From Nannocystales bacterium (GTDB lineage: Bacteria > Myxococcota_A > Polyangia > Nannocystales > Nannocystaceae): 64,000 nt of DNA. Under the pieces are notes generated by a model. The model was not told the origin of the DNA. It ran no database searches and saw nothing but the letters and a program-made list of their open reading frames with translations. Within the stretch, counting starts at the first letter, position 1; each line of letters opens with the position of its first letter. This document shows positions 45,350-61,406 of this stretch, one piece after another. Made by a program: the position numbers and the translations under genes. The stretch spans positions 64,001 to 128,000 of the forward strand of contig JBOEGF010000038.1 of NCBI GenBank assembly GCA_050633305.1. The letters run 5' to 3'.

Positions 45350-46591
45350 TCACAGACGCGGACCCGCGATCCCGACGACCCGCCCGGTACCCGACGTGTC
45401 GTTCAGCGCGACCGCCATGTCTTCGTTGGGCAACATGACAAACGATACGCCGCTCGCCTGCATGCCCGTGTCGGGAAACACCATCGACCAGCCCGGAGCA
45501 CCCTCGGAATCGAACGCGGACAGCTGCGTGCCTCCGCTGTGGTTGTGCAATACGATGAGCTCGCCGCTGGGGTGAACCAAGATGTCCGCGGCACTGCCAG
45601 CTGGAGTTATATCGGTGATCCACGCAAACTCTGTCTGCGGCGGATTCACCACCCCCACCCAGTGCGTCGGACTGAATATACCGATGGCCGCCAGTCGCCC
45701 GTCCGGCATCCGGGCGACCTCGCGGAACTCGTCCACCATGGCGCCGTAGGACTCGGTCATAGAGAATAGCGTTTCCCCTTTACTCCCCAGCACCGCCAAG
45801 TACAGACCGTGTTGGGCGGCGTTTCCGGCGACGGCGACTCCTCCGTCCCCCGCAAGGGCGATCGCATTTACATCGGCGACCGACTCGTCCCCCTCCACCG
45901 TTCGACTCCAGATTTCAGCCCCATTTGCGCCGTAGCGCGTGATCAGCCGGAACCGTCCGAGGTTCCCGCTCGCGCTGGAGATGACGACCTCGTCGTCGGG
46001 GCTCATCGAGACAGCGGCGCGCGAAGAGTTGAAGCCGTCGTAGCCCAGGTTGCCGTGCCCCCACAGACCGACCCCTGCGGTGTCGAAGACGCGCAGCGAC
46101 GCCACCTCGGGGGAGAGGACGTCCGCCACGGTGATTGCGGCGAATCCCCCGGCTCCGGAGGCGACGCGTACGCACACCTCACCCTCCGTATCCAGCGATT
46201 CACCGTCCACGGCCGCGACGTCCAGAAGCGTCATTCCGTCTCGGCCACACACCACCACACGCTCACCGATCGCTGCGAGGTCTTGAACACGCTGCTCTGT
46301 ATCCCACGTCCAGATGACCGCCCCGGAAACGCGGCAGCGGTCGTCGCAGTCTTCCCCCCCGTCGCACATCTCCGTGCCCTCCACGACACCGTTGCCGCAC
46401 TCCCCGGGGAGCGCAGGGTTCCCGGTGCTGGTCTCGTCGAGGCCCGCGACCTCCTCCACTGTGCTTTCGGAAGAAGAGACGCCCTGGGCCGACCCGCTGC
46501 TGTCCCCAGCCGAGGGGGCACGCTCCTCGCCGCACCCGGGGGCGGAGAACAACAGCAAGGAAGCAAGGGTCGGGACAGTACGCATTCGCAC
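45350..46591 (-). CDS. Lipoprotein with myxobacterial Cys-rich repeat and beta-propeller
   Basis: Lipobox APGC; CGNGVVEGTEMCDGG. Confidence 0.75.
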   Translation of the reverse strand: MRMRTVPTLASLLLFSAPGCGEERAPSAGDSSGSAQGVSSSESTVEEVAGLDETSTGNPALPGECGNGVVEGTEMCDGGEDCDDRCRVSGAVIWTWDTEQRVQDLAAIGERVVVCGRDGMTLLDVAAVDGESLDTEGEVCVRVASGAGGFAAITVADVLSPEVASLRVFDTAGVGLWGHGNLGYDGFNSSRAAVSMSPDDEVVISSASGNLGRFRLITRYGANGAEIWSRTVEGDESVADVNAIALAGDGGVAVAGNAAQHGLYLAVLGSKGETLFSMTESYGAMVDEFREVARMPDGRLAAIGIFSPTHWVGVVNPPQTEFAWITDITPAGSAADILVHPSGELIVLHNHSGGTQLSAFDSEGAPGWSMVFPDTGMQASGVSFVMLPNEDMAVALNDTSGTGRVVGIAGPRL

Positions 46592-46714
46592 CCAGCGTTT
46601 GACGCAGCGCAGTGACGAACGATCACCTTAAAGTGCCGAAATCCTCGCCCCGACACACAGCCGCAACCCAAGCGCTCGCCCTCTTCATCCCCCACGGCAC
46701 CCGGACGCGGGTCG

Positions 46715-48163
46715 CTATCCATCGGAGTAGAGTACGAGCACGCGGCCTTCGGCCCCACCACGGGCCCCGACTACGATATCTTCGATACCATCGTCGTTGA
46801 GATCGGCGACGGCGATATCACGACCATACTCCCCCTCGATCGAAAAGGACTGCTCTTCCTCGAAGGCGTCGTCTCCGAGGCTCATCAGGACGCCTACCGA
46901 CCCGAAATAGGGAAGCGCGGAGTTCCCACCGGTCACGACAATGTCGTCGCAACGGTCGTCATCGAGGTCGACGCCCGCCATCGACACGACCGGGCTGAGA
47001 ACGGTGAGTTGCTGTAGGGGCGCGAACCCGCGTTGACCGTCACCGGCGTAGACTTCGACGACGGCATCCGTGCTGATGGCAACGTCGAGCAACAAGTCTC
47101 CGTTGAAGTCGCCTATTGCGGTGGCTCGGCTGGGAAGCGCGCCCAACGCGGTGGGCCCATCGAGGCCGCCATTGCCCGTTCCCCACCAAACGAAGCCGCC
47201 ATCGAGCGTTGGCACGAGCACATCGACGAATCCGTCGGTGTCGAGGTCGGCGGTGGATATCTCGAATGCCCAGGGCGACTCGTACCGAATCGGGGTATCG
47301 AATGCCTCGGCGGCGTTCCCGAGATGCACTTCGATGCTGGTGCTTGCGCTCGTGATCGCGTCTAGGCGATTGTCCCCGTTGAGGTCCGCGAGGGCAATGT
47401 CCTGGCCGGAGGGGGTCATCGTGAAGTCCGACGCAGGGCCAAAGCTCCCGTTTCCTAGACCCCGCCAGCGCCGCACCACGCTGGCGGTCGTGGCGGAGTT
47501 CGGTCGCGTAAACGACACGAGATCAGGCTGCGCGTCCGCGATCGGGCCGATAGCGAGCGAAGGCGAGTACGAGTCCATGCTGGTGACCGTCCCAAAATCG
47601 CCGCCGATCTGTCCCAGAAGCGTTCGAATGACCTGGGAGCTGAGGTCCGACACGACGAGGTCTGGCTGGTCGTCGCCGTTGAGGTCGCCAAGCGCAATAC
47701 TGTCGACGGTTCCCCAGGCGCCGACCTGATCGAACCCGTTGTAGGGGACCGCATTCGTCGGGAACCGACCGGTCCCGCACTCGGGAAGCTGGATCCCGGT
47801 CGAGCTCGATGATTCGCCTACGCCTGAAGTCCGCTCGCTGGTCGTCGTGCTTCCGGTGGACGGCTCCGGACCCGATGTCGCCGCGTCGGAGGTGGATGAG
47901 TTCGGCGCCGTCGTCGTTCCCTCATCCCCCCCGGCCGATGAATCGACTCGCGAGGTCGAAACCTCAGCGTCGGTCTCGCTGGTCGGTCCCACTTGTATGT
48001 TCGAGGTGGGAGAGAAGCAGCCGGGCAGCAGGGATGTGACGAGGAGAGTAGAGGTGACAGCCCGACGAGGTCGTCGTGTGGACGACTCGTGGAGGCAAGG
48101 GGGAAATATGACGTGGGCGCGTCGATCGCGTGGCACGTGGGCGCGTGTTGCATGCGGTTGCAT
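46715..48163 (-). CDS. FG-GAP/VCBS repeat lipoprotein
   Basis: Lipobox LPGC; several GDLNGD/DLDTDG motifs; start uncertain. Confidence 0.8.
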   Translation of the reverse strand: MQPHATRAHVPRDRRAHVIFPPCLHESSTRRPRRAVTSTLLVTSLLPGCFSPTSNIQVGPTSETDAEVSTSRVDSSAGGDEGTTTAPNSSTSDAATSGPEPSTGSTTTSERTSGVGESSSSTGIQLPECGTGRFPTNAVPYNGFDQVGAWGTVDSIALGDLNGDDQPDLVVSDLSSQVIRTLLGQIGGDFGTVTSMDSYSPSLAIGPIADAQPDLVSFTRPNSATTASVVRRWRGLGNGSFGPASDFTMTPSGQDIALADLNGDNRLDAITSASTSIEVHLGNAAEAFDTPIRYESPWAFEISTADLDTDGFVDVLVPTLDGGFVWWGTGNGGLDGPTALGALPSRATAIGDFNGDLLLDVAISTDAVVEVYAGDGQRGFAPLQQLTVLSPVVSMAGVDLDDDRCDDIVVTGGNSALPYFGSVGVLMSLGDDAFEEEQSFSIEGEYGRDIAVADLNDDGIEDIVVGARGGAEGRVLVLYSDG

Positions 48164-48507
48164 GGTGAGTCTCGCTAGGGCAGAGGCCGCCTCGCCGAGG
48201 ATGTGACAGGGGGTGAGGAAAAACTCCGAGGGTTTGGAGTCGCGACATGCGGTGTCGACGCGCGTTCTACGCCGAGATCCGAAACCGGCTGCCTGGCTCA
48301 GAGTGTGCCCACCTTCGGCCGGCGGAGCGGTGCACGCAGGCAAGCCTCACGGACAGGTCGACGAAACGCGGCCGCCACCGGCGCGTTCGGTGTGCCCGAC
48401 AAACCGCTGACGGCCGGCAGCCTAGGCGACGACGTATTGCCCGACCCTCGCCGTCTCGAAATCATGAGGACCCGAAGTGTCCCGTAGTTCGCCCCGGGGC
48501 TCGAGGC

Positions 48508-49710
48508 TCACTCGTCTTGCTCGTCCGCGGCGGCGTGGGCAACCGACGCTTCGTCCGTCGGCACGTAGTACCCGGTGACACGGAGAGCCGCGTTCCCCAT
48601 TCTCGGAATGTCGAAGACGAGCGTCTCGGCTTCGCCCTGTCTCAAGATGAGCGGGTTGCCGGCATCGCCACACCCCGGCGAAGGGCGCGCACTCGAAACG
48701 GCACATCGGAGGGGTTGGAGTTCTTCGTTGTCGACACGCACAACGATCCTAGAGACTCGCGTGACCTCCGGCTTTCGTTCTTGCAGTTCAACCTCCAATC
48801 TCCCAGGCTCCACAATCCCGAGGTCGGTCGGCTGGGTCGCCGCCAGGCTCGCGTCACGCAAGTTGGTGAGAGTCTCTCCCAGCTCCTCTCCGTCGACCCG
48901 GACGAAAGGGCATGCTGCGAACCCGCAACGGGTGTGAGAATCGAGAGTTCGCTTCATGCGGACCTTGGCGATTTCCTCGACCTCCGGTATCCAGCGATAG
49001 GATTCGACCGCTCTCGACTCGACCCCGTTTCGGGCCTCAGGGGGGTCTGCATCGCGCATGCACTCCGTCCACACCACCTGGAACCGCCCCTTGCCTGTGA
49101 ATGAGGGCCGAGCCCCGTGGGGAGTCATCAGAGACTCCTGCCCTTCGAGGATATTGGACAGCACTCCGTCGCGGATCGAGAATATCTGATGCTCGCGAGG
49201 CGGGTCTTCGGCCCCACCGTAGGGAAGCGTCACCAGGAGAGCGTGTTGCTTTGCGTCGAGATCGATCTCGACGATTTCGTAGTCCTCTTCCGGCCCAGAA
49301 AGATCGACGGGAGGCAACTTGACGAGTTGCTGCTCATAACGGAGGTATCCGTGCTCGGTGAGGTTCACCTCCTCCAAGACCCCATCACCGTCGAGGTCTG
49401 AGTGAAGCGAGCGCACCGAGGCCCCAGGCCCCGTAGGCGACTCGGAAGCGTCAAGAGAGCCAGGATCAGAATCCGGGGCTGTCGGCTGGGGACATTGGGT
49501 CTCGGGTTTCGAACCCTCGATTCGAGGGCAGACAGGACAAGGTGTACCGGATGCCACGATGTGCTCGGACATACCCCCATTGCACGCCGCTCCCGACATC
49601 AAAGCAAGCAAGCCGCTCCTTGCTCCGAGCCTCGCTGGCCACGGACTCAGCGTCCTTCTCAGGACCATCCGCAGAAGCAATAACGATGTCGATAGCGTGC
49701 TCAGGTTCAT
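48508..49710 (-). CDS. Hypothetical lipoprotein
   Basis: GAAC lipobox; DLDGDG; ACPFV motif; start uncertain. Confidence 0.65.
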   Translation of the reverse strand: MNLSTLSTSLLLLRMVLRRTLSPWPARLGARSGLLALMSGAACNGGMSEHIVASGTPCPVCPRIEGSKPETQCPQPTAPDSDPGSLDASESPTGPGASVRSLHSDLDGDGVLEEVNLTEHGYLRYEQQLVKLPPVDLSGPEEDYEIVEIDLDAKQHALLVTLPYGGAEDPPREHQIFSIRDGVLSNILEGQESLMTPHGARPSFTGKGRFQVVWTECMRDADPPEARNGVESRAVESYRWIPEVEEIAKVRMKRTLDSHTRCGFAACPFVRVDGEELGETLTNLRDASLAATQPTDLGIVEPGRLEVELQERKPEVTRVSRIVVRVDNEELQPLRCAVSSARPSPGCGDAGNPLILRQGEAETLVFDIPRMGNAALRVTGYYVPTDEASVAHAAADEQDE

Positions 49711-50066
49711 CTCGATACTGCGCTCCTCACCACAAACGCTTCGAATGCACGACCGCTTTCATCGTCACGGGCGAGTTAGACTCGCAAAAATGCGACTTCT
49801 GCAAGATCCTTCAGTGCTTACGCGAACGAACGCGTTTCGCGTCCGAACCCTGCGAGAACGACGACCCTCCGGGCCCTGCCGCAGATCTTCTGCGGAACAA
49901 ACCGCTCCGCCTGGACGTCAAGGACCGCATGCCTGGGAATCGGTTTATCGCCCACGTCCTCGTGCTGTCCGCCTCCATGCATGCGTGGGTCCCCTGGGGA
50001 CAGGTGCCAACGCCTCGGACTTCCGATGGCAACGCGGGCAGTCGCCGCGACTTGGCTTGAACACTT

Positions 50067-50867
50067 TCAGGGGCCGTGTTCCGCCTCAAGGGTCTTGAGC
50101 ATCGAGAACAGGAGCTCGTGCAGTCCCGCGCTGATCCCGTTCGCGAAAGGCGTTGCTCGGACCAGCGTCAGGCGGGCTTGCCATGGGTCGCCACGGTCGT
50201 TGAGGACGGGGAGCGCTGGGCCGCGCCGCGCTGCGGGCATGACTTCGCGAAAACTCGCGCATTGGCGACACACACCGTCCTTGTTGATCAGCGAACACAA
50301 TCCATCGAACGTCGCTTCCATCGCGCGACGGCCTTTGCTCAGCTCCCCGCGAAACACCGACTCGCTGAGGCTGAGTATGTTGGCGGCCTCTTTGTTGGTG
50401 AGGCCGACGACCTCGCGCAATACGATGGCCGCTGCCCGGGTGGGTACCAAGGAACGGCCAACACAGGAGAAGCAGAACGAGACGTGCTCGCGAACGTCAA
50501 ACGCGAACCCAGGATCCCGGGTCGCGTCCACGACCTGTTGGCGCCGCTCGTCGTCGGCTTCGCATTCCTCTTCGAGGTAGCGTTGACTGTAGGGCCGCCA
50601 GCGTTCCTGTTTGCGGAGGTGGTCGAGGCAGGTGCGGGTTGCGATCGTCAACAACCAGCCGCGAAAAGCACCCTCGTCGCGGAGTGTCGCGAAGCGTTCG
50701 AAGGCCTTCAACGTTGTCGCCTGGACGAGGTCCTCGGCGTCGGCCGCATGCCCGATGAGCCGTCGGACGTACGCTCGAAGCAACTCGTCGTGGGGCCGCA
50801 ACAGTACGTCGAAGCGCTCGCGAGCCTCGCGGGGAGGGCGGATGGGCTGTTCGTTGTGCTGCGACAT
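50067..50867 (-). CDS. ECF sigma factor with Cys-containing C-terminal extension
   Basis: DAEDLVQAT, FRGWLLTIATRTCLDHLR, CFSCV, CSLINKDGVCRQC. Confidence 0.9.
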   Translation of the reverse strand: MSQHNEQPIRPPREARERFDVLLRPHDELLRAYVRRLIGHAADAEDLVQATTLKAFERFATLRDEGAFRGWLLTIATRTCLDHLRKQERWRPYSQRYLEEECEADDERRQQVVDATRDPGFAFDVREHVSFCFSCVGRSLVPTRAAAIVLREVVGLTNKEAANILSLSESVFRGELSKGRRAMEATFDGLCSLINKDGVCRQCASFREVMPAARRGPALPVLNDRGDPWQARLTLVRATPFANGISAGLHELLFSMLKTLEAEHGP

Positions 50868-50935
50868 CGATCTTTGTAGAAGTCGTTTTAACTCATGTGC
50901 TTAGCGGATCTCTGGCGCTCGCGCGTCTTAGGGAC

Positions 50936-51379
50936 ATGAACAACCAAACGTTTTCCATCAAGCATCGGATCGAGCTCGACGTCAAGCCCGCCAGCGTCTA
51001 CGACGCGGTCTCGACCCAAGCCGGCCTCGCGTCGTGGTGGACCACGATGGTCGAGACCAGTGGCGAGCTCGGCTCGCTGGCGGCGTTCCGATTCGGGGAC
51101 GGGGAGCACGGCGCGGACATGCGGATCGATACCCTGACCGAAGGCATGCTCGTCCGGTGGCACTGCGTCGACGGGCCCTGGAAGGGCCTCGACTTCACGT
51201 TCGACATCCAGCCACACGAGCGAGGCTCCGTACTACGGTTTGAGAACTCGGGGTGGCCCGAGACCGGAGACTTCTACATGCACTGCAACGCCAAGTGGGG
51301 CTTCTTCCTGGCCGTGAGCTTGAAGCAACTTCTCGAGACCGGGGCCGGCGTGCCTCACCCCGACGACCCCCGGATCTAG
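50936..51379 (+). CDS. SRPBCC/AHSA1 domain protein
   Basis: VYDAVSTQAGLASWW...LRFENSGW...CNAKWGFFL. Confidence 0.88.
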   Translation: MNNQTFSIKHRIELDVKPASVYDAVSTQAGLASWWTTMVETSGELGSLAAFRFGDGEHGADMRIDTLTEGMLVRWHCVDGPWKGLDFTFDIQPHERGSVLRFENSGWPETGDFYMHCNAKWGFFLAVSLKQLLETGAGVPHPDDPRI

Positions 51380-51672
51380 TGGGCACTGTCCCTCGAACCG
51401 CCGGGCCGTCGATGCCGAGGTCCGGTGCCGTGGGCATCGCGGAGGCGGGCCCGCACTGAACATGCTGGCTATGCTGCGACGCCGAGAACCGGTCCTCTAC
51501 TGCGATTCACCGAACAATGTATCGCCATCGAGTGGGTCTAAGGCGGCCGAACAAGATGACTGGGTCTCTCCAACGAATCACCGCCGAGCGAAGCAATCCG
51601 CAGGATTCGTCCCTGGATATGTAACGTCTTCGTCTGATCTGCGTAGGCGGGGGCCAGAGGATTCAGATTACC

Positions 51673-52281
51673 GTGAAAACCGATTTGCGTTCCATTCTCG
51701 AAGCAGCCGCACTCGCGGCCGCAACCCTCGTGTTCCCGGCCTGCGATAGTGAGGCCGGCGACGACACTCCGTCTGGTACCGCGGGCACAGAAGCCGGCTG
51801 CCCGGCTGCGACCGGTACTGACGCGGGCTGCCCCGGTTCGAGCTCGGGTTGCCCCGGCACGACGGCCGGTTGCCCTGCTGCCGAGCGCCCCGACGAAGTC
51901 GAAGACGTGCTCGCGGCGATCGAAGACGACAGCTACACCGGCTGGGAAGCCGAGTCCGCGGCACACCCACCGGTCGGAACCTCGCCCCACCCCGGAGAAG
52001 TCCGAACGTTTTTTAATCCGGAGCTGGCCGAGTCCATGGGCGCCGGTAACACCGAACACCCGCTGGGCTCAGCAGCGATCAAGGAGTCGTGGATGGACGG
52101 TGAGCTCGCCGGGTGGTTCATCGAGGTCAAGGTGGCTGAAGGCACTGGCCCCGAGACCTGGTACTGGTGGTCCGACCTTGCGGGCGTCGACGCGCTCGGC
52201 GGCGATGCCTCGGTGATGGGGTGTGTCGGTTGCCATGCCGCGGGTACCGACTACGTCACGACGGCGTACCCGCTCGAGTAG
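51673..52281 (+). CDS. Cytochrome P460-like heme-c lipoprotein with four GCP repeats
   Basis: Lipobox FPAC; PLGSAAIKE; WYW; C-terminal CVGCH. Confidence 0.7.
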   Translation: MKTDLRSILEAAALAAATLVFPACDSEAGDDTPSGTAGTEAGCPAATGTDAGCPGSSSGCPGTTAGCPAAERPDEVEDVLAAIEDDSYTGWEAESAAHPPVGTSPHPGEVRTFFNPELAESMGAGNTEHPLGSAAIKESWMDGELAGWFIEVKVAEGTGPETWYWWSDLAGVDALGGDASVMGCVGCHAAGTDYVTTAYPLE

Positions 52282-52409
52282 GCGTCGCGACCCGAGCGCC
52301 TGGGCCACGCTGGGCCAGGAATCTGTCGTGCGAAGCAAGAGGGAACTCGCGCTGCGGCGGACAGCCCCAACGGGGCTGCCGCAGTTCGCCCCCGAGTCGC
52401 GCATTTCGG

Positions 52410-52880
52410 TCATGTGCGATCCTGCGGGTCACGTTCAGGCCGTACGTCCACCGATGAGCCTGCCGTTCGTTGGCCTCGTCGAGATGGCTCGAACCGCGCG
52501 TTTGCATCGAAGAGGTGCGGCATCGTCTTGCGTAGGTCACCCAGCCTCTCGTCGAAGGTCATCGTGTAGCGCCCGGGGATGGGCCCCGTGTCCAGGAGCG
52601 GCGCGCAAGGGATCATGACGTGGTAGCCGGAGCCATCGCGCTCGAGAGGGCGCTGGTAGACGTAGAGGCGGTCTCGGTCAGCGTCTTGGATGAACAACAC
52701 GGTCGCTGTGCACGCGTCGTAGTTCTCCAGCCACAACGTGCCAGCGCGTCGCAGTCGGGCTTGCCGTTCGCGTTCGTCGGCGAGGTCGCGAGGACACAGC
52801 AGTGGGGCTTGCCAGACGTGGTGGCGCGGTAGTGAAGATGGAAGCTCGGTCACGGGGCGCATGTAGAAAATCTCAGACAT
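52410..52880 (-). CDS. Putative MbnC-like MNIO partner protein (short)
   Basis: Overlaps the stop of the MbnB homolog; AGTLWLENYDACTATVLFI weakly resembles the MbnC C-terminal domain (from memory). Confidence 0.5.
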   Translation of the reverse strand: MSEIFYMRPVTELPSSLPRHHVWQAPLLCPRDLADERERQARLRRAGTLWLENYDACTATVLFIQDADRDRLYVYQRPLERDGSGYHVMIPCAPLLDTGPIPGRYTMTFDERLGDLRKTMPHLFDANARFEPSRRGQRTAGSSVDVRPERDPQDRT

Positions 52881-53748
52881 CGCGGAGCTCCGGGGCGGGT
52901 CGAGTTTCGGCCGGTGGCCGTGTCAGGGCTTGGTTTAGGCGACGGAGGTCGTCGGCGACGTCGCTGGCAGTCTTCTCTTTCTCCCGTTCGAGGCAGATCG
53001 ACCGCAGTTGGCCCTGTCGGCCAAGAAGCGCGACCAGGTCCAGGCTCGCTGGGCTCAGTGGATCTCCGTGTGAGTCCCGCAGTTTGCCGTCGTGAGGGTC
53101 GAGGCGGTAACCGCCTACGTGAGCGTGGACTGGCGCCTGGCTGAGCAGCGAACTCCAGGCGTGCACCGGGTCTCCCCCGTTGGTTTCGGCGACGATCGCA
53201 TTGGAGACATCGAAGAGCAGCCCGGCTCCTGTTCGTCGGAGTACCTCACCGGCAAAGTCGGCCTGGCCCACTCCCTGTGGGCCAGCAGAGGCGATGTTCT
53301 CCAGCAACAGGCGACGGCCGGTGGCCTCTTGGTATCGCTGGACTCGCCGGCACGTCTGTTCGAGGTCTGCCTCATAGTCGAGGTCCTCCGGCTGCGCCAG
53401 GTAGCGGTCGCCGGCCACGGTACGCAGCAGGTGGTCGGAGACGTAGACGGGATCCAAGGCACGAATGTGCGTGGACATGCAGTCGAGAATCCGGTCGAGG
53501 CGTTCGGCGGAGGTGTGGACGAATCCGGTCCACATGACGTGTAGTGCGACCCGTGGGGCGAGCGCCTCGAAGCTTCGAGCAATGACGTCGGGATCGAGGT
53601 GGAGGTAGTTGTCCCAGAGAATCTCGACGAACGTCAGTGCGTCCTGACGGCCGGCCATGGCCACCGCATCGGCGTACAGGCTGAAGTCGGTGAGGTTATT
53701 GACGCTCAGGGTTGCTTCGGTCGGCGAGGATGCGCTGAACTCGTTCAT
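52873..53748 (-). CDS. mbnB: MbnB-like multinuclear non-heme iron oxidase (MNIO/DUF692)
   Basis: VEILWDNYLHLDP, ALHVM, PVYVSDH, LLEN, LFDVSNA, HVGGY, DSH and LER follow the MbnB motif order. Confidence 0.85.
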   Translation of the reverse strand: MNEFSASSPTEATLSVNNLTDFSLYADAVAMAGRQDALTFVEILWDNYLHLDPDVIARSFEALAPRVALHVMWTGFVHTSAERLDRILDCMSTHIRALDPVYVSDHLLRTVAGDRYLAQPEDLDYEADLEQTCRRVQRYQEATGRRLLLENIASAGPQGVGQADFAGEVLRRTGAGLLFDVSNAIVAETNGGDPVHAWSSLLSQAPVHAHVGGYRLDPHDGKLRDSHGDPLSPASLDLVALLGRQGQLRSICLEREKEKTASDVADDLRRLNQALTRPPAETRPAPELRDV

Positions 53749-54832
53749 GGACGTAGTTTCGGAAGCTGTGCAGGGGATCGACGATGCTCGCTCCGGCTCG
53801 AGCCAAGGCGTGCTCCCCGAAGCTCGGGATCTCGTGCGGCGCAGCTTTGCGCTCGAGGATGAATTGGTCTGCCCACTCACCCACGATGCTGCGAAAGAGC
53901 GACGGACCCAGCAGAGCGTGCAGCTGTGGTTCTCTGCGGGCGAAGATCAAGTTGTTCAGCAGACCCACCGCGACTCGCTCCTCGTCGACCTCAACTGGGG
54001 TTCGTCGTCGCGTGTTGGCCACCAACTCGGCGACACGGTCGAACTCGGCGCGATAGCCTTCGGGTCGTTCGGCCCACACGGGGTCGGTGTGCTCGACGAC
54101 CACGGTCAGTGGCTGGTCCGCCACGCGGAGCACGGCGCATAGCAACTCGAGGACCTCTTCGGCTAGGGGCTCACCATGGGCGTCATGCCAGACGCCTCGA
54201 CGGTCCTTCTTCACCCCGGACAAGTGGATGCAACTGACAAGGTCGAGGTCGACGAAGCCGAGCATCATGGTCGACGAGATGCCGCAGTTGCGGGCGTGAA
54301 CACACAGGTGGGCGAGATCGAGGACCATGGAGATGCCCTCGGTGGCACACAACGCGTTGGCCAAAGCCCAGGCACGTCGAATCGCACCCAGGTCCACGTC
54401 GTAGAAGTTTGCGTTCTCGATCAGAATCGGCCACGGCAAGCGTTCACGGGCCGTGTCGAAAAACCGCCGGGCGGCGCGATCGTTGTCCTCGGTCGAGACA
54501 TACGCGGGCCCAGCTCCAAGCCAGCCCATGCCCGAACGGTATGGACCGCACAGGTGCACGCCGATGGAGTCTACGCATGGCGGCGCGCGCTCCAACACGT
54601 CGTCGAGGAAGGCGTCTTGAATGGGTGGTCGTTCGCAGACGGGCGCTCGGGACAGGTGCACAGAGCGGTGTTTGATGGAGGCGAGAGCCTGGCCCTTCTC
54701 ACAGCCGATCGCGTTCCACCCCGCTTCGAGATGTTCGACATACGGCGGCAAGTCGAGATGACCGTCGACGATGGCCGGGGTGTAGCCACAGCCAATGCGG
54801 TGTGTGACCGATTGGGAGAAAGGGGCGGGCAT
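53696..54832 (-). CDS. Second MNIO (DUF692), MbnX/MovX-like, with C-terminal extension
   Basis: SVHL, GVHL, LIEN, LDLAH, IHLSG, HDAH, VVEH; about 100-aa helical tail. Confidence 0.8.
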   Translation of the reverse strand: MPAPFSQSVTHRIGCGYTPAIVDGHLDLPPYVEHLEAGWNAIGCEKGQALASIKHRSVHLSRAPVCERPPIQDAFLDDVLERAPPCVDSIGVHLCGPYRSGMGWLGAGPAYVSTEDNDRAARRFFDTARERLPWPILIENANFYDVDLGAIRRAWALANALCATEGISMVLDLAHLCVHARNCGISSTMMLGFVDLDLVSCIHLSGVKKDRRGVWHDAHGEPLAEEVLELLCAVLRVADQPLTVVVEHTDPVWAERPEGYRAEFDRVAELVANTRRRTPVEVDEERVAVGLLNNLIFARREPQLHALLGPSLFRSIVGEWADQFILERKAAPHEIPSFGEHALARAGASIVDPLHSFRNYVHERVQRILADRSNPERQ

Positions 54833-54864
54833 GGGCAACTCTGCGATACAGGCGGGGGGGCGCA

Positions 54865-54884
54865 GGACGCTCGGGCGAGCGTCC
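54865..54884. other. GC-rich hairpin downstream of the precursor gene
   Basis: GGACGCTC-gggc-GAGCGTCC, no U tract. Confidence 0.6.
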
Positions 54885-54906
54885 CACGCGGTCGTCGCGG
54901 TAGGGC

Positions 54907-55083
54907 CTACGCGACCGTGATGATGTAGTCGCCGCAGGTTGCAGGAGCCGACACGGGGACCGCTGGCGCTGCCGCTCTGGCACCCCCGACCACGGCCTGG
55001 AGCACTGCGGTGTCGAGAGAGTCGAGCGTCCGGGTTTGACGGTCGTCGTTGCGGGGGCTCTTGTTATTGTTCTTGTTGGTCAT
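54907..55083 (-). CDS. RiPP precursor peptide, 58 aa: MTNKNNNKSPRNDDRQTRTLDSLDTAVLQAVVGG-ARAAAPAVPVSAPATCGDYIITVA
   Basis: Translated by hand (not in the ORF track); A-rich leader with AAGAG; double-Gly leader motif; single Cys in TCG; directly upstream of the MNIO genes. Confidence 0.85.
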   Translation of the reverse strand: MTNKNNNKSPRNDDRQTRTLDSLDTAVLQAVVGGARAAAPAVPVSAPATCGDYIITVA

Positions 55084-55110
55084 CGTTGTTGCTCTTCGTT
55101 TGTTGTTGGT

Positions 55111-55611
55111 TCAGGGAGTGAGCAGCCGCTTGGATAGCCACAGCTCGTCGTGGAATTTTCCGCCCAGCATGAGCGCGTCGCAGCGCCGCCCCTCGACCTC
55201 GAACCCCAGGCCGCGGTACAGCTCCAGGGCGCGTAGGTTGTCTTCGCGGACGGTCAGCTCGACCCGTCGGATTCCGTTGCGAGTGGCATGGGCCAGCGCG
55301 GTCTCGAACAGCCGCCGCCCGATGCCGAATCCCCAGTGCTGCTGGAGCACGCCGATCCACGCGCGCGCCACGTGGGCGTTGCGCTGCAATCCGCCCCGCT
55401 GCATTCCGCAGAGCGCGACGATGTGGCACCCGTCGAGGGCAACGAACGTCCACGCCGTGGAATGCTCCAGCATGCTGCGTGTGCTGGTCTCCGAGACCTC
55501 CTCTGGGGCAGGGAGGAGGAGGTCCGTCTGTCGAGCCAGAGCCTGGCGCAACTCGAAGATGGGCAGTGTCTCTGCCGAGTTGGCGAGTCGGTATTCGAAA
55601 CTGGGCGTCAT
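55111..55611 (-). CDS. GNAT N-acetyltransferase
   Basis: IGVLQQHWGFGIGRRL, LTVREDNLRALELYRGLGF; ends 27 nt upstream of the precursor. Confidence 0.9.
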   Translation of the reverse strand: MTPSFEYRLANSAETLPIFELRQALARQTDLLLPAPEEVSETSTRSMLEHSTAWTFVALDGCHIVALCGMQRGGLQRNAHVARAWIGVLQQHWGFGIGRRLFETALAHATRNGIRRVELTVREDNLRALELYRGLGFEVEGRRCDALMLGGKFHDELWLSKRLLTP

Positions 55612-56030
55612 GGGTTCTTGCGGGCGGGCATAGAGGCCCTCTACGTCCACGCTCGAACTTCTGACGCGGCAAATCGACGAAGCGCAGCCTGCGACAGGTG
55701 GTAGGCGATCGTAGACGCGGTGGCGCAAAGCAAGCGCCGCCGGCTGAGGATGGCGGCGTCGCTCAAGGCAAACGCATCCCTCGCTACGCTCTGCATCGAC
55801 CGCACCGGGGGGAGCGACGGTGGGGCGAAGTCTGTTGGAGGCTGGCCCGGTGTTTTGGTGCCACGGCCCCAGACCCTCCGAGATGTGTGTACCCGCGAAC
55901 TGCACTGCGCGACGCAGTGGTCCCGGGTGCAAGCGTTTCGACCGGCTGTTCTCGGCGCGAGAACGACGGGTTCTCAATCTGTGGCGTTGTCCACGTCCCC
56001 TCCTGGGCTCAACCTGGAACGGAGGTCGAG

Positions 56031-56555
56031 ATGAACAGCGAATCGAACAACGAGTTTCCAGTGCAGCCCATCCGGGGCAAACATCGGATCGAGGCGTCCA
56101 TTGAGGTCGACGCGCCCATCGAGGCGGCGTGGGCAGTGATCGCCGACTTCAACGACATCTACCTGTGGGCGCCCTCCGTCGAGGACTCCCGCGGTATCAC
56201 GGCATCGCAACGCTGCGTGGGGGCAGGACGGCAGTGCACGATCAAGGGGTTCGGAAAGATCGACGAGGTCATCACCGATTGGAAGGAAGGCCGCGAGTTC
56301 ACCTACGCCGTGGGGGCCCTCGGACCGTTCAAGGGGTCGCGCAGCCGCTGGCAGCTGGAGAGCCTGAGTCCAACCCGGAGCCGCCTGACGCTACAGCTCT
56401 CGTACGACATGCGAATGGGATTCCTGGGGGACGCGATGAACGCCCTCGTGATGCGTCGGAAGCTGCAACAGTCGCTGGACGGGATCTTGGAGCCGTTCAA
56501 GCGCCGGGTCGAGACCGGTGAGGTTCTGCGCCCCGTTCGCTCCGCGGCGGCCTGA
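56031..56555 (+). CDS. SRPBCC family protein
   Basis: GGAGG RBS; IEVDAPIEAAWAVIADF...VGAGRQC. Confidence 0.85.
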   Translation: MNSESNNEFPVQPIRGKHRIEASIEVDAPIEAAWAVIADFNDIYLWAPSVEDSRGITASQRCVGAGRQCTIKGFGKIDEVITDWKEGREFTYAVGALGPFKGSRSRWQLESLSPTRSRLTLQLSYDMRMGFLGDAMNALVMRRKLQQSLDGILEPFKRRVETGEVLRPVRSAAA

Positions 56556-56761
56556 AACGGGGAGCTGATGATGCGACGGAACACGGCGATGACCGAGGGG
56601 CAGGGCTCGGACACGACAATGGCGACGGTCTATCGAGATGCGGTCGCTGGCACGCTCGAGCGTGTGATCGACGCGCAGGTCAGGGCGCTCTCGGACGACC
56701 TCGTTTGAAACGTCGGGCAGGCACGCGCGTTGCTTCGCCCAACCCCACCCAACTCAGGCCC

Positions 56762-57535
56762 ATGCGACCTCCCCATCTCAGTCTCTCGCCAGCCATCACC
56801 GCTTTCGTCTCGGCGATGGCCTGCAGCAGCCCCTCCCCCGAAGATCCCTTGGTGACGACGCAGCAGCCGACGGCTTCGCCCAACGCCATCGAGCACAATC
56901 GTGTTCCACAGGATGCGCAGCGAGACGCGCTTCGACACCCCGAGGTGTTCATGGACTTCGCTGGTGTGGCTCCCGGCCACCAGGTTCTCGAGCTCGGCGG
57001 AGGCGACGGCTACACCTCGATGCACATTGCACGGCGCGCGGGCCCTTCGGGCGGCGTGTTGGCGGTCAACCCCCCGCAGTGGAGCACGTTCATGCGGCCC
57101 TACATCGCAGCCCGGTTGGCAAACGGGCCCGTCGCTGGCCTCACCTTCGCCGAGCGGCCGTTCGACGACCCCGTGCCACCGGGGCATGTGCCTTTGGACC
57201 TCGTCGTCTGCGTGCTCATCTACCACGACATCCTCTACATCGACGTCGACCGCGCACGGATGAACGAACGCCTGTTTGCCGCCCTCGAGCCGGGAGGGAA
57301 ACTTCTCATCATCGATCACGCCGCTGGGGACCCGAACGACCTCTCGGTCGGGGGAACGCTGCACCGGATCGGCAAGGACGCCGTGATCGACGAGGTCACG
57401 GCGGCCGGCTTCTCGTTGGTGAACGAATCGGACGCGCTCAGCATGCCCGAAGACCCACATACCGGGCTTGCATGGACCGACCCGCAACCCCGTACCGACC
57501 GCTTCGTGCTGTTGTTTGAGAAGCCGAAACGCTGA
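56762..57535 (+). CDS. Class I SAM-dependent methyltransferase with lipoprotein signal
   Basis: AMAC; RDALRHP; VLELGGGDGY; YHD; LEPGG...DH; LHRI. Confidence 0.85.
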   Translation: MRPPHLSLSPAITAFVSAMACSSPSPEDPLVTTQQPTASPNAIEHNRVPQDAQRDALRHPEVFMDFAGVAPGHQVLELGGGDGYTSMHIARRAGPSGGVLAVNPPQWSTFMRPYIAARLANGPVAGLTFAERPFDDPVPPGHVPLDLVVCVLIYHDILYIDVDRARMNERLFAALEPGGKLLIIDHAAGDPNDLSVGGTLHRIGKDAVIDEVTAAGFSLVNESDALSMPEDPHTGLAWTDPQPRTDRFVLLFEKPKR

Positions 57536-57760
57536 GGTCGCGCAACACCGCGACGATTCGTCGGTCCCGGCCAAGATGCGCTGCTAGGCACAACCTGGCG
57601 TACATCGGCCCACCCGAGTTGGGGACGGCCCCTAGACCGTCTTTGCCGTTCCCGCGTTCCTCTGCAGGTCGGCTTGACGCTCCCACGCTCTCCAGTACGT
57701 TGAGTCCGCGTTCGATGAACGCTCTGGCACCACAAACGCCGTCTTCGCCGAGGTATCGAC

Positions 57761-58528
57761 ATGACCCAAGCTCTCGTTCCCACCACGGAGTCCCCCAAGC
57801 GGGGTCCTCTTCGCGAACTGCTTGTCGCCGCGGGCGCAACCTGCATCGCCCTCGCGCTGCCCAGCGCGCTGATCACCAACCACTCCAACGACGGCTGGCC
57901 ACTCATGGTTGCGATGTCGATGCTTGCCTTCGCGTCGTACCCGATGTCGCGTGCCTCCAACCTCTTCGCGCAACTCTTCGCTCGCGCAATCTGGTGGCAA
58001 GCCCTCGCTTTCGGTCTCGTGCTCGGCCTCGGTCATGCGCTGGGCGAAATCAACGGGTCCATTTCGAGCGCGGTCCCCATGTATCTGTTGGGCGGTGCCC
58101 TCACACTCGGCGCAGCTGGCAAGGTTGGTCTCGACTTTGAGTCCGCGTATTTCGTCCCGAACGAGTTTCGGCGCAGCCTCACCGCCTCGCTGGTGATGGC
58201 GATGGCCGACACCATCGCTCTGCTGTTCTACGCTGGCATTGTCCTCGTCGATGGCTCGGTGCGCGGGTCAGTGCTCCTCGACGTTGCGGAGTTCACCGGT
58301 GCGGCGCTCGTGATGGTCGTGGCGCTGGTCGGGTTGTACCGAATTAAGGTGTGGGGCCTCGTTCTCAACATCGGTGCCAACATCCTCATCGCGACCCTCG
58401 CGGTGACGGGCGTGTTCGACATCCCCCCGGTCATCGCGTTCGGGCTCGCGGCCACAGCCCTCGCCCAGCTGTTCCTGCCGATCCCCCTGCTGGTCCGCGC
58501 GGCCCGAAGCAGGCGCGACGCAGCCTAG
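57761..58528 (+). CDS. Multi-pass membrane protein
   Basis: About 8 hydrophobic segments. Confidence 0.75.
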   Translation: MTQALVPTTESPKRGPLRELLVAAGATCIALALPSALITNHSNDGWPLMVAMSMLAFASYPMSRASNLFAQLFARAIWWQALAFGLVLGLGHALGEINGSISSAVPMYLLGGALTLGAAGKVGLDFESAYFVPNEFRRSLTASLVMAMADTIALLFYAGIVLVDGSVRGSVLLDVAEFTGAALVMVVALVGLYRIKVWGLVLNIGANILIATLAVTGVFDIPPVIAFGLAATALAQLFLPIPLLVRAARSRRDAA

Positions 58529-58579
58529 GGGGGACGACGGCCGTACCTGCACCCAGGCCTCCGAGACCCGTACCGTTCG

Positions 58580-59215
58580 TCACGATGCGACCGGGTCGCG
58601 AGGGGCCGACGACGGTCGCGCGTACACACGCTCTACGGGAACCCGAAGGGCTTCAAGCGCCCCACGATGCGTCCGTTGCTCGCGTACGAAGTCACTGATG
58701 TCCTCGATCGACAGGGTCTCCTCGGACACGAATCGACGCAGCATCGTCCCACGCAACCCGAGCTGAACCGCGCGTCTGGCCAGCTTGCCACCGGTCGGAC
58801 CATGGTCGGGATCCCACTGAAGCCGGACCTCTGACCTCCGCAGCGCACGCTTCCAGGCGTCGCGGCTTTCGAGACCGGACGCGCCGAAGCTGGAAGCGAC
58901 GGCCGTGTCGAGCAGTGTGTCGAAGAAGGCCCGCCGCACGCGAATCGCCAGCACGCGGGCCTGTTCGTCGTCAGCTTGCAGCCAGTCGCAGCGGTACATC
59001 ATCCACATGAAGTTGGGCTTGATCCAGCTCATGCGATCCAGCGAGTACCGCGGGCCTCCGAGTTGTTGGTGCTCCACGGCGTGCGCTGCCGTGACGGCAT
59101 TGAAGGCCTGGTACACCACGATCGAGTCGCGGTCGTACTGCGCCAACACAACCTGCCCGGAGGCGGGCCAAGTATCACGGAGCGAGAGATACGGGGCGAT
59201 GTCGAGTTCGATCAC
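58580..59215 (-). CDS. DUF4291 domain protein
   Basis: IVVYQAF, RMSWIKPNFMWMMYRC, VRLQWDPDH, RRAVQLGLRG. Confidence 0.9.
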   Translation of the reverse strand: MIELDIAPYLSLRDTWPASGQVVLAQYDRDSIVVYQAFNAVTAAHAVEHQQLGGPRYSLDRMSWIKPNFMWMMYRCDWLQADDEQARVLAIRVRRAFFDTLLDTAVASSFGASGLESRDAWKRALRRSEVRLQWDPDHGPTGGKLARRAVQLGLRGTMLRRFVSEETLSIEDISDFVREQRTHRGALEALRVPVERVYARPSSAPRDPVAS

Positions 59216-59346
59216 GGAGCGGAACCTGCGTCGTGCAAGTCCCACCATGACCGTTCGCTGGCTCGTGTCCAGGCGACAAAGCAAAAAAATGAGACCTACA
59301 GCCAAGCCGGTTCATCGTCGTTCCAGCGCACGAAGGCCATTCGCGC

Positions 59347-60405
59347 TCAGGGATCCGAGGCGCTCGGGAGCGTGGCGATCCACGAGGCGGTGTGCGTCCC
59401 GATTGCGGTCGGCTGCACCTCCTGCAGGTAGTGAAGGCCCGACCCGACATCGATCGTCTTCATGCGCGGGAGGTCCCGCTCGAGCTCGGGGCGCGTCTTC
59501 TTGGTCCAGATCATGCCCGGGTCTGCGTAGAGCATCAGCAACGGCGTGGACGAAGAGCGAAGCCACGCGTAGTTGGCAGCGATGCGTGTCGCGTTGTCCG
59601 CTGGCTCCTCGTCCAACGGGATCTCCCGCGGCCATTGGGCCACAGGTCGGCGGGATTCGACGGTCGGGTACGGCTCGCGATACGCCGCCATCTCAGTGTC
59701 CGTCAGCGTCCGTCCCGACATCATGGGCAGGAGCTTTTCGACGAAGTAGTTGTCCTCCGCGAGCAACTCGTGCCCCTGGTCCGGGTCTCGTAGGCGCTTG
59801 AAGAGGAAACGGCTGGGTGCGTCGGCATCCTCGAGCGACATGGGTTTCAAGACCGCCTCGAAGTGCGCAATTCCGCGGACGTTGTCCGCGTGCCGAGCGG
59901 CGTAGTCGATCGCGACTCCGCCTCCCCAGTCGTGTGCGACCAGGACGACGTCATGGAGGTCGAGCTTGGCGATGAAGGCATCAAAGTACGCCGCGTGGTC
60001 TTCGAACCGGTAGTCGAGATCTGGCTTCCCACTCTTGCCCATCCCAATCAGATCCACTGCGATGACTCGCCCCGAGCTCTCGAGATGCGGAATGACGTTT
60101 CGCCACAGGTAGGCGCTCGTCGGATTGCCATGCACGAGCACGATCGGGGGCCCCTGCGGGTCTCCGGCCTCGACGTAGGCCATCTCGCTGTCCAACACCT
60201 CGACGGTCTCGTACTCGAAGGGGAAGTCCCCGCTGATGCCGGGCTCCACCTTCTTGGCTTTGGGCGCCATCGCGGGCATCACGGCCAGACAGCCTGTGGC
60301 CAGCCACCCCGACATCGCTGCGAAGATTCCGCCCGCTCGGGCTGGCCCGCTCCCTTTCCGACGCGTCTCACTCGGGTTCGCTTGTGGAGGATGTGTGTTC
60401 GGCAC
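59347..60405 (-). CDS. dhaA: Haloalkane dehalogenase
   Basis: HGNPTSAYLWRN, DLIGMGKSGKP, HDWG, WPREIP, GLHYLQE; start uncertain. Confidence 0.9.
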   Translation of the reverse strand: MPNTHPPQANPSETRRKGSGPARAGGIFAAMSGWLATGCLAVMPAMAPKAKKVEPGISGDFPFEYETVEVLDSEMAYVEAGDPQGPPIVLVHGNPTSAYLWRNVIPHLESSGRVIAVDLIGMGKSGKPDLDYRFEDHAAYFDAFIAKLDLHDVVLVAHDWGGGVAIDYAARHADNVRGIAHFEAVLKPMSLEDADAPSRFLFKRLRDPDQGHELLAEDNYFVEKLLPMMSGRTLTDTEMAAYREPYPTVESRRPVAQWPREIPLDEEPADNATRIAANYAWLRSSSTPLLMLYADPGMIWTKKTRPELERDLPRMKTIDVGSGLHYLQEVQPTAIGTHTASWIATLPSASDP

Positions 60406-60456
60406 CCCGAAACCTTGAACATGCCGACGGCGTTTCGGTAGGCACACAAACGCCCA

Positions 60457-61365
60457 ATGGATGACCAAGAATCGCCAGCACCGTTCGACTGGGATGACGC
60501 TCGCGTCTTCTTGGCCGCGTATCGGTGCGGCTCGTCCCTGGGTGCAGCTCAGCGGCTCTCGGTCAGCCACTCCACGGTTCGGCGCCGCCTCGCGGGGCTG
60601 GAGCGAGCCTTGAACGCTCGGCTGTTCACGGCAACTCCGGATGGCCTGCACCCCACCCAAGCCGCAGAAGCAGCGCTCCCGGCCGCCGAGGCCTTGGAGC
60701 GAGCGGCATCGACATTCGTTCATCAGCTCCAGGGGGGAAGCCGAGCCCTGCAAGGCTCACTGCTGGTGACGACGCTCCATGGGCTCGCCGGACTCATCGC
60801 ACCGAGCGTCAAGCGATTCACTGAACGATATCCCCAGGTCGCTCTCACGCTGCGGTGCGAAAACCAGATCAAGGACCTCGCGCGTCAAGAGGCCGACATC
60901 GCGATCCGCCTCGTCAACACGCCCGACGAGACACTGTTCGGTCGGAGAATTGGGCGGGTTGGCTTCGGCGCATATGCGGCCCCCTCGCTGATCGCTCGCT
61001 ACGGCCGCGACATGACTGCGCTGCCATGGATCCTCTGGGACACCAGGGCTGGCGCGGAGCAGACCGAGCGCTGGTACGCCGAGCGCTCCAACGGTCGGGC
61101 GCCCGTCCTGCGGGTCACCGACGTTTCGGCCATGCTCGGTCTGGCTCGCAACGGAGTCGGCGGAGCCGTCCTCCCCATCCCGTTGGTTTCCGGGAGCGGG
61201 CTCGAGCCCGTCGAAGCGCGAATCGCCGGGTTCGACACCGACATCTGGTGTCTGTGCCACCGTGATGCTCGGAACTCCGAGCGGGTGCGAGCGTTCATGC
61301 ACGAAGCCTCGACGACTGGCGCCCGGATTGCCGCGGCGCATGCGTCCGAAGAGGGGGAAGCCTAG
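60457..61365 (+). CDS. LysR-family transcriptional regulator
   Basis: DWDDARVFLA...SHSTVRRRL; DLARQEADIAIR; divergent from the dehalogenase. Confidence 0.93.
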   Translation: MDDQESPAPFDWDDARVFLAAYRCGSSLGAAQRLSVSHSTVRRRLAGLERALNARLFTATPDGLHPTQAAEAALPAAEALERAASTFVHQLQGGSRALQGSLLVTTLHGLAGLIAPSVKRFTERYPQVALTLRCENQIKDLARQEADIAIRLVNTPDETLFGRRIGRVGFGAYAAPSLIARYGRDMTALPWILWDTRAGAEQTERWYAERSNGRAPVLRVTDVSAMLGLARNGVGGAVLPIPLVSGSGLEPVEARIAGFDTDIWCLCHRDARNSERVRAFMHEASTTGARIAAAHASEEGEA

Positions 61366-61406
61366 GGGCCGTGCGACCCGCACGGCCTCCCACACTGCCC
61401 GAGTCC

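Follow-up and report, generated by a model that had tools for sequence, protein, structure and literature searches.

Enzymes of the MovX type have been described as cutting the backbone of a small copper-peptide precursor at an asparagine, and the locus analysed here raises the question whether the side chain of that asparagine is needed. In a stretch of 64,000 nucleotides from a Nannocystales bacterium (GenBank assembly GCA_050633305.1, contig JBOEGF010000038.1, positions 64,001 to 128,000; hereafter the window), a predicted MNIO (an oxidative enzyme that depends on multinuclear non-heme iron) of the MovX subfamily, termed X, is encoded next to a precursor peptide, A, that has no Asn past its core Cys. 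We propose, at a probability of about one half, that X would perform MovX-type cleavage of the N-Cα bond at residue 54 of A, where an Ile stands at the family Asn position, leaving a C-terminal Tyr-amide and shedding the segment IITVA. The features concerned, found as open reading frames (ORFs) unless stated otherwise, are the following.

54907-55083, minus strand: precursor peptide A, 58 aa, from ORF and DNA
53696-54838, minus strand: X, a MovX-subfamily MNIO by homology, 380 aa with TTG 54838 as the start, 378 aa with ATG 54832
54308-54319, minus strand: DLAH motif of X, D174-H177, in the presumed metal site, from the alignment
53699-54073, minus strand: helical tail of X, residues 256-380 (start approximate), about 125 aa past the barrel, from model and alignment
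52873-53748, minus strand: B, an MbnB/MovB homologue, likely start ATG 53748, read from the DNA
52410-52880, minus strand: C', an orphan ORF of 156 aa at the MovC/MbnC position

A precursor core without asparagine

The precursor reads MTNK...LDTAVLQAVVGGARAAAPAVPVSAPATCGDYIITVA and its C-terminal end is ...PATCGDYIITVA, without Asn past the Cys. In the core, ...ATCGDYIITVA, Cys50 lies at 54934-54936 and Ile54 at 54922-54924, and the core end is encoded by TAC ATC ATC ACG GTC GCG TAG, in which the Ile codon ATC is one base from the Asn codon AAC. Four residues follow Ile54, compared with 0-2 beyond the Asn of the relatives, so that five residues stand past the Tyr instead of 1-3. For comparison, 34 related loci were recovered (16 in genomes, 18 in metagenomes), among which there are duplicates. 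When the 22 precursors are aligned, every row has T49 and C50, and nearly every row has G51, Y53 and N54; the window precursor is the only row without N54. Five of the relatives (L011, L013, L019, L033 and L042) have the very same TCGDY followed by N.

A profile built from 22 precursors and searched against a set of 5.8 billion proteins gave 19 matches, 18 of them with Asn and one, P0156, a variant of the window peptide on a 941-base contig, which was also the only match of a single-peptide database search with the window precursor. P0156 differs by Q29E in the leader and has a core identical to that of the window; therefore, the window core is not a sequencing or assembly slip, and the retention of the core suggests that the precursor is maintained. 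Across the six frames of the 11-Mb genome, 49 C-terminal matches to TC[GA]x[YFW] occur and the window peptide alone adjoins an MNIO gene; a second MovA-like peptide was not found in this genome, and no MNIO gene adjoins a look-alike on contig C36 (...ATCGDFE). The absence of the Asn is a genuine deviation, unique so far among the retrievable precursors. In the literature searched, which did not include the original MovX study and its supplements, no account was found of a precursor lacking the Asn for an enzyme of the MovX type.

The leader also departs from that of the Vibrio type. It is longer, and within peptide residues 24-48 it has the double glycine of LQAVVGG and then, ahead of TCG, a spacer of 14 residues rich in Ala and Pro, whereas in Vibrio-type leaders a (K)VVVKV strand leads straight to TCG; EVNGG is likewise present in the Chitinimonas precursor (L020). 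The window cluster has no peptidase-containing transporter next to it. The Gly past the Cys is not universal in the family, as seen from TCASYNK (L018, 4862-4933), TCTNYNL (L028, about 3875-3934), TCSSYNTN (L034, about 3871-3933) and, in the protein database, TCADYNK; all of these Gly-less variants retain the Asn.

Fold, metal site and subfamily of X

The gene of X ends with the stop codon TAA at 53696-53698; its residues are counted here from TTG 54838, and the 378-aa version is identical to the database gene call P0001. Its match to PF05114 (formerly DUF692) scores 57.3 bits against a cut-off of 25 and covers only profile positions 120-241 of 263, and the match of MovX is similarly partial, with 63 bits over positions 116-231. 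The AlphaFold model of X, built on a 74-row alignment, reaches a predicted local distance difference test (pLDDT) score of 95 and consists of a TIM barrel with a helical C-terminal part. Its best Foldseek matches are TglH (8hi7_B, 1.7e-11), MbnB (7tcr, 7fc0 and 7dz9, about 1e-9) and 3bww (4.5e-8); a sequence search of X against PDB chains gave no match at E<=1.

X retains H61, H95, E141, D174, H177, H205, D219, H221 and E249, of which all but H177 are the same in MbnB-type enzymes and in at least 45 of 50 other MNIOs; after the MbnB structures, we take these conserved columns to be the iron ligands. The residues invariant throughout the 74-row alignment are E38, S59, H61, G93, H95, G108, E141, N142, Y146, D174, H177, N184, H205, G208, H218, D219, H221, E249 and H250. 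With every iron-ligand column kept, X is an intact MNIO, which may be expected to be active.

A sequence-only reading of the window had reported the ORF of X, its DLAH motif, the extension and the Asn-less core, all of which are real and lie where that reading had placed them, as judged from the ORF, the DNA and the alignment. Its remark that most MNIOs have DxxN also stands, since the H177 column holds N in 36 of 50 other MNIOs, as it does in MovB and the neighbouring B. As a special feature of X, however, the motif loses its weight: H occurs in the remaining 14 of 50, and all 74 of the 74 family members aligned have both D174 and H177. DxxH is likewise present in 21 of 21 full-length enzymes derived from the related loci, reading DISH in MovX. 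Therefore, DxxH is the signature of the subfamily.

The likeness to MovX that the sequence-only reading had named is borne out at several levels. The MovX of Vibrio caribbeanicus ATCC BAA-2122 and its mov cluster were reportedly studied by Chioti et al. (J Am Chem Soc 2024, 146:7313). Searched exhaustively with phmmer, 1.84 billion representatives yielded 302 homologues of X at E<=1e-3, of which 44 reach E<=1e-30; some 80 with lengths of 330-390 aa form a coherent group above an E of about 1e-22. B itself is no match to X at E<=1e-3. The V. caribbeanicus MovX gene product, 361 aa and encoded between movA and movB, shares 28% identity with X (E 2e-40), together with the DxxH, the invariant H218 and H250, a homologous tail, the precursor register T-C-G-x-aromatic and the place of its gene between those of the precursor and the MbnB homologue. 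This locus (L017, contig NZ_AEIU01000072), whose 23-aa peptide is named 'methanobactin-like peptide MovA' by NCBI, and, contig permitting, the other loci have the same A-X-B gene order as the window. The V. caribbeanicus operon is assigned to the Group V methanobactin-like type in the available part of Kenney and Rosenzweig (PMC3621798), and the window cluster appears to be a 'mov' operon of this type.

In a FastTree phylogeny of 98 rows, rooted on two MbnB-type enzymes, the MovX family splits from the MbnB outgroup with a support of 99. By sequence match and by this tree, X stands with MovX in one monophyletic group rather than with the other types of MNIO. Together with P0002-P0004 (58-61% identity, support 100), X forms a 4-row branch; a further set of homologues (P0005, P0006 and P0009-P0025) stands at 33-41%, and both sets lie on contigs from Logan, ENA and JGI. 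The branch is part of a 22-row clade (support 89), which comprises the window X, P0002-P0006, P0009-P0019, P0021-P0023, P0025 and P0033. All 21 related-locus enzymes on the tree sit in a separate 73-row clade (support 92), and 20 of their loci have a recorded Asn precursor, the remaining one, L021, being without upstream DNA. Throughout the 22-row clade R100 is replaced by Y, F or L and E203 by V or C, whereas MovX keeps both. The 4-row branch of the window has further replacements, namely N20 by T or C, W230 by L or I (W in 70 of 71 others), D214 by R, Y289 by V, Y293 by L and G220 by A, and X differs from MovX in lacking N20, W230, Y289 and Y293 as well as R100 and E203. In the model, positions 20, 100 and 203 lie at or just past barrel strands 1, 4 and 7; the active sites of TIM barrels sit at such strand ends, and the three positions may contact the substrate. 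By this comparison, the missing Asn appears to coincide with a divergent enzyme clade.

The fused C-terminal tail

X has 380 aa where MbnB chains have 260-268, and the extension, put at about 100 aa by the sequence-only reading, measures about 125 aa. It does not distinguish X, since it aligns across the family, MovX included. In the full model the tail forms helices 259-275, 286-302, 304-332 and 355-375 and a small hairpin. In a 22-row tail alignment of X, MovX and 20 other relatives, W322 is invariant and D265, F266 and F359 are kept in at least 90% of the rows, and the family Y-A pair at 289-290 is V-A in X; the tails of X and MovX are thus homologous.

The tail matches no family of Pfam or NCBIfam, and a tail-only model from the 22 rows (pLDDT 80) gave no Foldseek match at E<=0.001. 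The sequence-only reading had suggested comparing its structure with DUF2063 folds and with the recognition element (RRE) of RiPPs, which are peptides synthesized by ribosomes and modified after translation. An exhaustive structure search with VIA returned only weak helical-bundle matches, none of which reaches the noise limit that the tool gives for models made of helices: Set2 SRI as the best (Z 6.3), sigma-factor region 2 (Z 5-6), the DUF2063 protein NGO1945 (3dee_A, Z 5.4, rmsd 3.1 over 67 residues) and MbnC (7dz9_C, Z 4.4, rmsd 2.8 over 63 residues). No RRE entry is among the best 50 matches listed, by which an RRE fold is not excluded. The alignment of the tail profile with a MovC-type profile by hhalign (E 0.062, probability 0.9%) pairs two conserved Trp but lies within noise, and a link of the tail to the N-terminal helical part of MbnC or of DUF2063 partners is a lead. 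In their available parts, papers citing the MovX study describe the extra domain of MovX as winged helix-turn-helix or RRE-like and suggest that it is a built-in recognition domain, a role that the tail of X may share, as the sequence-only reading had proposed. The predicted complexes of X with the precursor gave ipSAE values of 0.19 and 0.00 against a mark of 0.32, from which no statement on binding follows.

DxxH and the fused tail are hallmarks of the whole MovX subfamily, and what appears new in the window is the Asn-less substrate. The peculiarity of this system lies in its substrate, neither in the enzyme motif nor in the tail.

Proposed cleavage at residue 54

According to the available parts of several papers (PMC12452194, PMC11252979, PMC12912966, PMC12636437, PMC13056109), MovX cleaves the N-Cα bond of an Asn without a partner protein and leaves a C-terminal amide, and is grouped with the enzymes that abstract the Cα hydrogen of the residue at the cleavage site; these citing papers, as far as available, describe its amide-forming chemistry for asparagine only. 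We propose that X would act in the same way on the window precursor. An O2-dependent attack on the Cα of Ile54 would be followed by scission of the N-Cα bond, by which Tyr53 would be left as a C-terminal carboxamide and the IITVA piece released, while B would turn Cys50 into a heterocycle/thioamide unit, the conversion that MbnB and MovB perform. Maturation would then give the end ...TC*GDY-NH2, identical to that of the relatives with TCGDYN- cores, and the leaving group alone would differ. If the chemistry starts at the Cα, the side chain of residue 54 would not be chemically required; and since the register T-C-G-D-Y-|-x is kept and TCGDYN occurs in five relatives, a cut at Ile54 is the simplest reading. 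The removal of an IITVA follower, put forward by the sequence-only reading, is plausible and fits this proposal, but the site would be the Ile at the Asn position rather than the Asp or Tyr named there.

Going one step further, the whole 22-row clade could tentatively be regarded as a second functional type, whose substrates would have, in place of the Asn plus 0-2 residues, an aliphatic residue with a hydrophobic follower of greater length; we hold this extension less firmly than the cleavage by X itself.

Several observations weigh against the proposal. First, in 32 of the 34 related loci the X-type gene has, directly upstream, one small ORF whose product ends in TCxx[Y/F]N plus 0-2 residues, with 24 distinct peptide ends among these 32; the other two loci, L021 and L040, start inside or at the enzyme gene and have no upstream DNA, so that the Asn is present in 32 of 32 readable loci. 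Such invariance suggests that the Asn is a determinant of recognition or mechanism, in which case an Ile may not be accepted. Second, enzyme and substrate are seen to co-vary in a single case, as no precursor was retrieved for the other members of the 22-row clade: a genome scan with the single protein gave no relative, and a second genome scan and a metagenome scan yielded enzymes of the Asn-type clade only. Pocket-type changes also occur beside Asn precursors, with C20 in L020 and F230 in L027. Third, compared with its relatives the operon looks incomplete: C' is not recognisable by sequence as MbnC or MovC, an MbnC was not found elsewhere in the genome (92% complete), and no MATE exporter follows C', whereas most relatives have an ORF of 407-455 aa after C. 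The exporter of the Vibrio operon is called a MATE transporter in the available part of Kenney and Rosenzweig (PMC3621798). Finally, searches through 71 other genomes of the order, 59 relatives and 400 genomes of the phylum (E<=1e-15) did not find X; therefore, the cluster is a sporadic acquisition, and it could be decaying.

The Asn of all readable related loci (32 of 32) and of all other database precursors (18 of 18), the state of C' and the exporter, and the absence from the order and the phylum are also what speaks for the alternative that survives best, namely that X is strictly Asn-specific and that an Asn-to-Ile change uncoupled the precursor, X now being idle or relaxed in a decaying cluster or in a partly rewired acquisition. 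We consider this unlikely. X, B and the precursor are all intact and every ligand column is kept; the second natural variant, P0156, keeps the core; three database homologues at 58-61% identity indicate that the clade of the window is maintained in several organisms; and a follower four residues longer is unlike a single recent mutation.

Still less probable is that X catalyses a new oxidative reaction on the hydrophobic follower without N-Cα cleavage at residue 54, such as hydroxylation, dehydrogenation, cleavage at another residue or a cross-link from Tyr to the follower. The deep side clade with its changes at 100 and 203, plus 20, 230, 289 and 293, and a follower that is longer and wholly aliphatic, unlike that of any relative, would suit such a reaction, and MNIO subfamilies are known for divergent chemistry in the parts of the cited literature available; but nothing positive points to any particular alternative, and the conserved register T-C-G-x-Y-|-x favours a MovX-type site. 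The weakest candidate is the action on Asp52 or Tyr53, at side chain or backbone, that the sequence-only reading had proposed, by ApyH-like chemistry or aromatic hydroxylation: although these are the functionalised residues nearest the Cys, and other MNIOs act on Asp (ApyH, PflD) and Phe (PbsC) according to the available parts of PMC12452194 and PMC13056109, a D or S followed by Y or F is the family norm alongside the Asn (TCGDYNL, TCGDYNK, TCGDYNIR), so that Asp-Tyr argues nothing for it here, and X groups with MovX, not with other MNIO types, and scores 57.1 bits with the ApyH model of NCBIfam against a cut-off of 400, a match that is its best in NCBIfam but covers only a half-barrel.

Neighbouring genes and distribution of the cluster

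The compact minus-strand operon runs in the order GNAT acetyltransferase, precursor A, X, MbnB-like B and C', with the GNAT gene directly upstream of the precursor gene; the start of B overlaps the end of X by 53 nt, and the start of C' overlaps the stop of B by 8 nt. The gene next to C' is convergent, on the plus strand. The further features are the following.

55111-55611, minus strand: GNAT acetyltransferase, 166 aa from an internal ATG, PF00583 at 8e-14
54860-54889, minus strand: GC-rich hairpin of 13 bp in the 68 nt that separate the precursor gene from X, from RNA folding
51673-52281, plus strand: putative lipoprotein whose signal peptide has ...LVFPAC as its end and whose C-terminal part contains a CVGCH motif of the haem-c type
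50067-50867, minus strand: sigma factor of the extracytoplasmic function (ECF) type, sigma-70 regions 2 and 4, from ORF and family match

B matches TIGR04159 (MbnB) with 159.5 bits, below the equivalog cut-off of 325, MbnB 7dz9 by sequence at 1e-29, and MovB with 32% identity (E 6e-38), and it keeps the ligand columns; on these grounds, it is a true MbnB homologue. MovC matches TIGR04160 at 3.7e-10, but neither Pfam nor NCBIfam contains a match to C' at E<=10. The hhalign probability of C' against 19 MovC-type proteins is 0.07, neither a PDB sequence match nor a homologue in 59 relatives was found, and its ESM Atlas model (pLDDT 0.38) gave no usable match; C' may be either a very diverged MbnC or an unrelated replacement. 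The GNAT shares 34% identity (E 8e-23) with the GNAT that closes the mov-type cluster of Chitinimonas (L020), and ORFs of 169-193 aa, matched by size and place only, stand at its position in L013, L015, L022, L024 and L028; therefore, it probably belongs to the pathway. The 81-nt RNA stretch between the precursor and X folds at -39.1 kcal/mol (z -3.5 against shuffles) and has no T-run, and the hairpin in it may be an attenuator that sets the ratio of precursor to enzyme transcript. The ECF-type sigma factor has a C-terminal extension of about 80 aa with a CxxC pair.

When five genomes of the same genus were compared with 46000-62000 of the window, DNA-level conservation (72-77%, seen in four of them) was confined to 51641-52309, which spans the lipoprotein gene, and the boundaries of an island could not be drawn. 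A plasmid collection gave no match to the locus. The stretch 52400-55700 occurs in one public DNA run, a microbial mat metagenome, as near-identical contigs at depth 2-4; this may be the source sample, so that it gives no independent support, and no RNA run is listed with the stretch. The genome holds at least five further MNIO-like loci (C15:185918, C67:17314, C11:91864, C32:118012 and C7:111301), two of them with an in-frame TGA in the match. Elsewhere in the family, the MovX-type gene of Xenorhabdus lircayensis (L026, 435-1525) is split into ORFs of 122 and 193 aa, and its MbnB and exporter genes also look broken, which suggests that this mov cluster is decaying.

Comparison with other peptide-modifying enzymes

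X shares with MbnB of the MbnB/MbnC complexes (7dz9, 7tcr and 7fc0) the TIM-barrel MNIO fold and the presumed iron-ligand set, but has H for N in DxxN and a fused tail instead of the separate partner MbnC. MNIOs of the ChrH/DybH type (about 365 aa) are similar to X in length and extend past the barrel, and the available part of PMC13056109 reports them to be active without a partner, 'as also observed with MovX'; they are also the nearest language-model neighbours of P0013, a member of the 22-row clade, which is a lead only. However, their substrate motif is CPACGMG and their chemistry another, and X scores 22 bits with the NCBIfam ChrH model against a cut-off of 600. ApyH resembles X as an MNIO working on the C-terminal end of its precursor, where it acts on a C-terminal Asp, but belongs to another cluster type and requires the partner ApyI (Table 1 of PMC12452194, in the part available). 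The outcome proposed for X, an oxidative N-Cα cleavage that leaves a C-terminal amide, is also that of PAM and of the alpha-ketoglutarate-dependent enzymes MicC and PosC/PflC; in the sources as far as available, these have unrelated folds and cofactors and cleave at Gly or at an ARMD motif.

Implications for the MovX family

The operon of the window offers a natural, intact test case of the MovX type for the question whether the reaction needs the Asn side chain. If the 22-row clade is indeed a second functional type, X would amidate through N-Cα scission at an Ile, the reaction would not be tied to asparagine, and the MovX subfamily would provide a general, genetically encoded module for C-terminal amidation and follower removal. 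Should the Asn side chain prove dispensable, this enzyme class would be a broader tool for peptide amidation and follower removal, and the side clade would mark further copper-peptide-like products; should it prove required, the locus would show a RiPP pathway coming apart after horizontal transfer.

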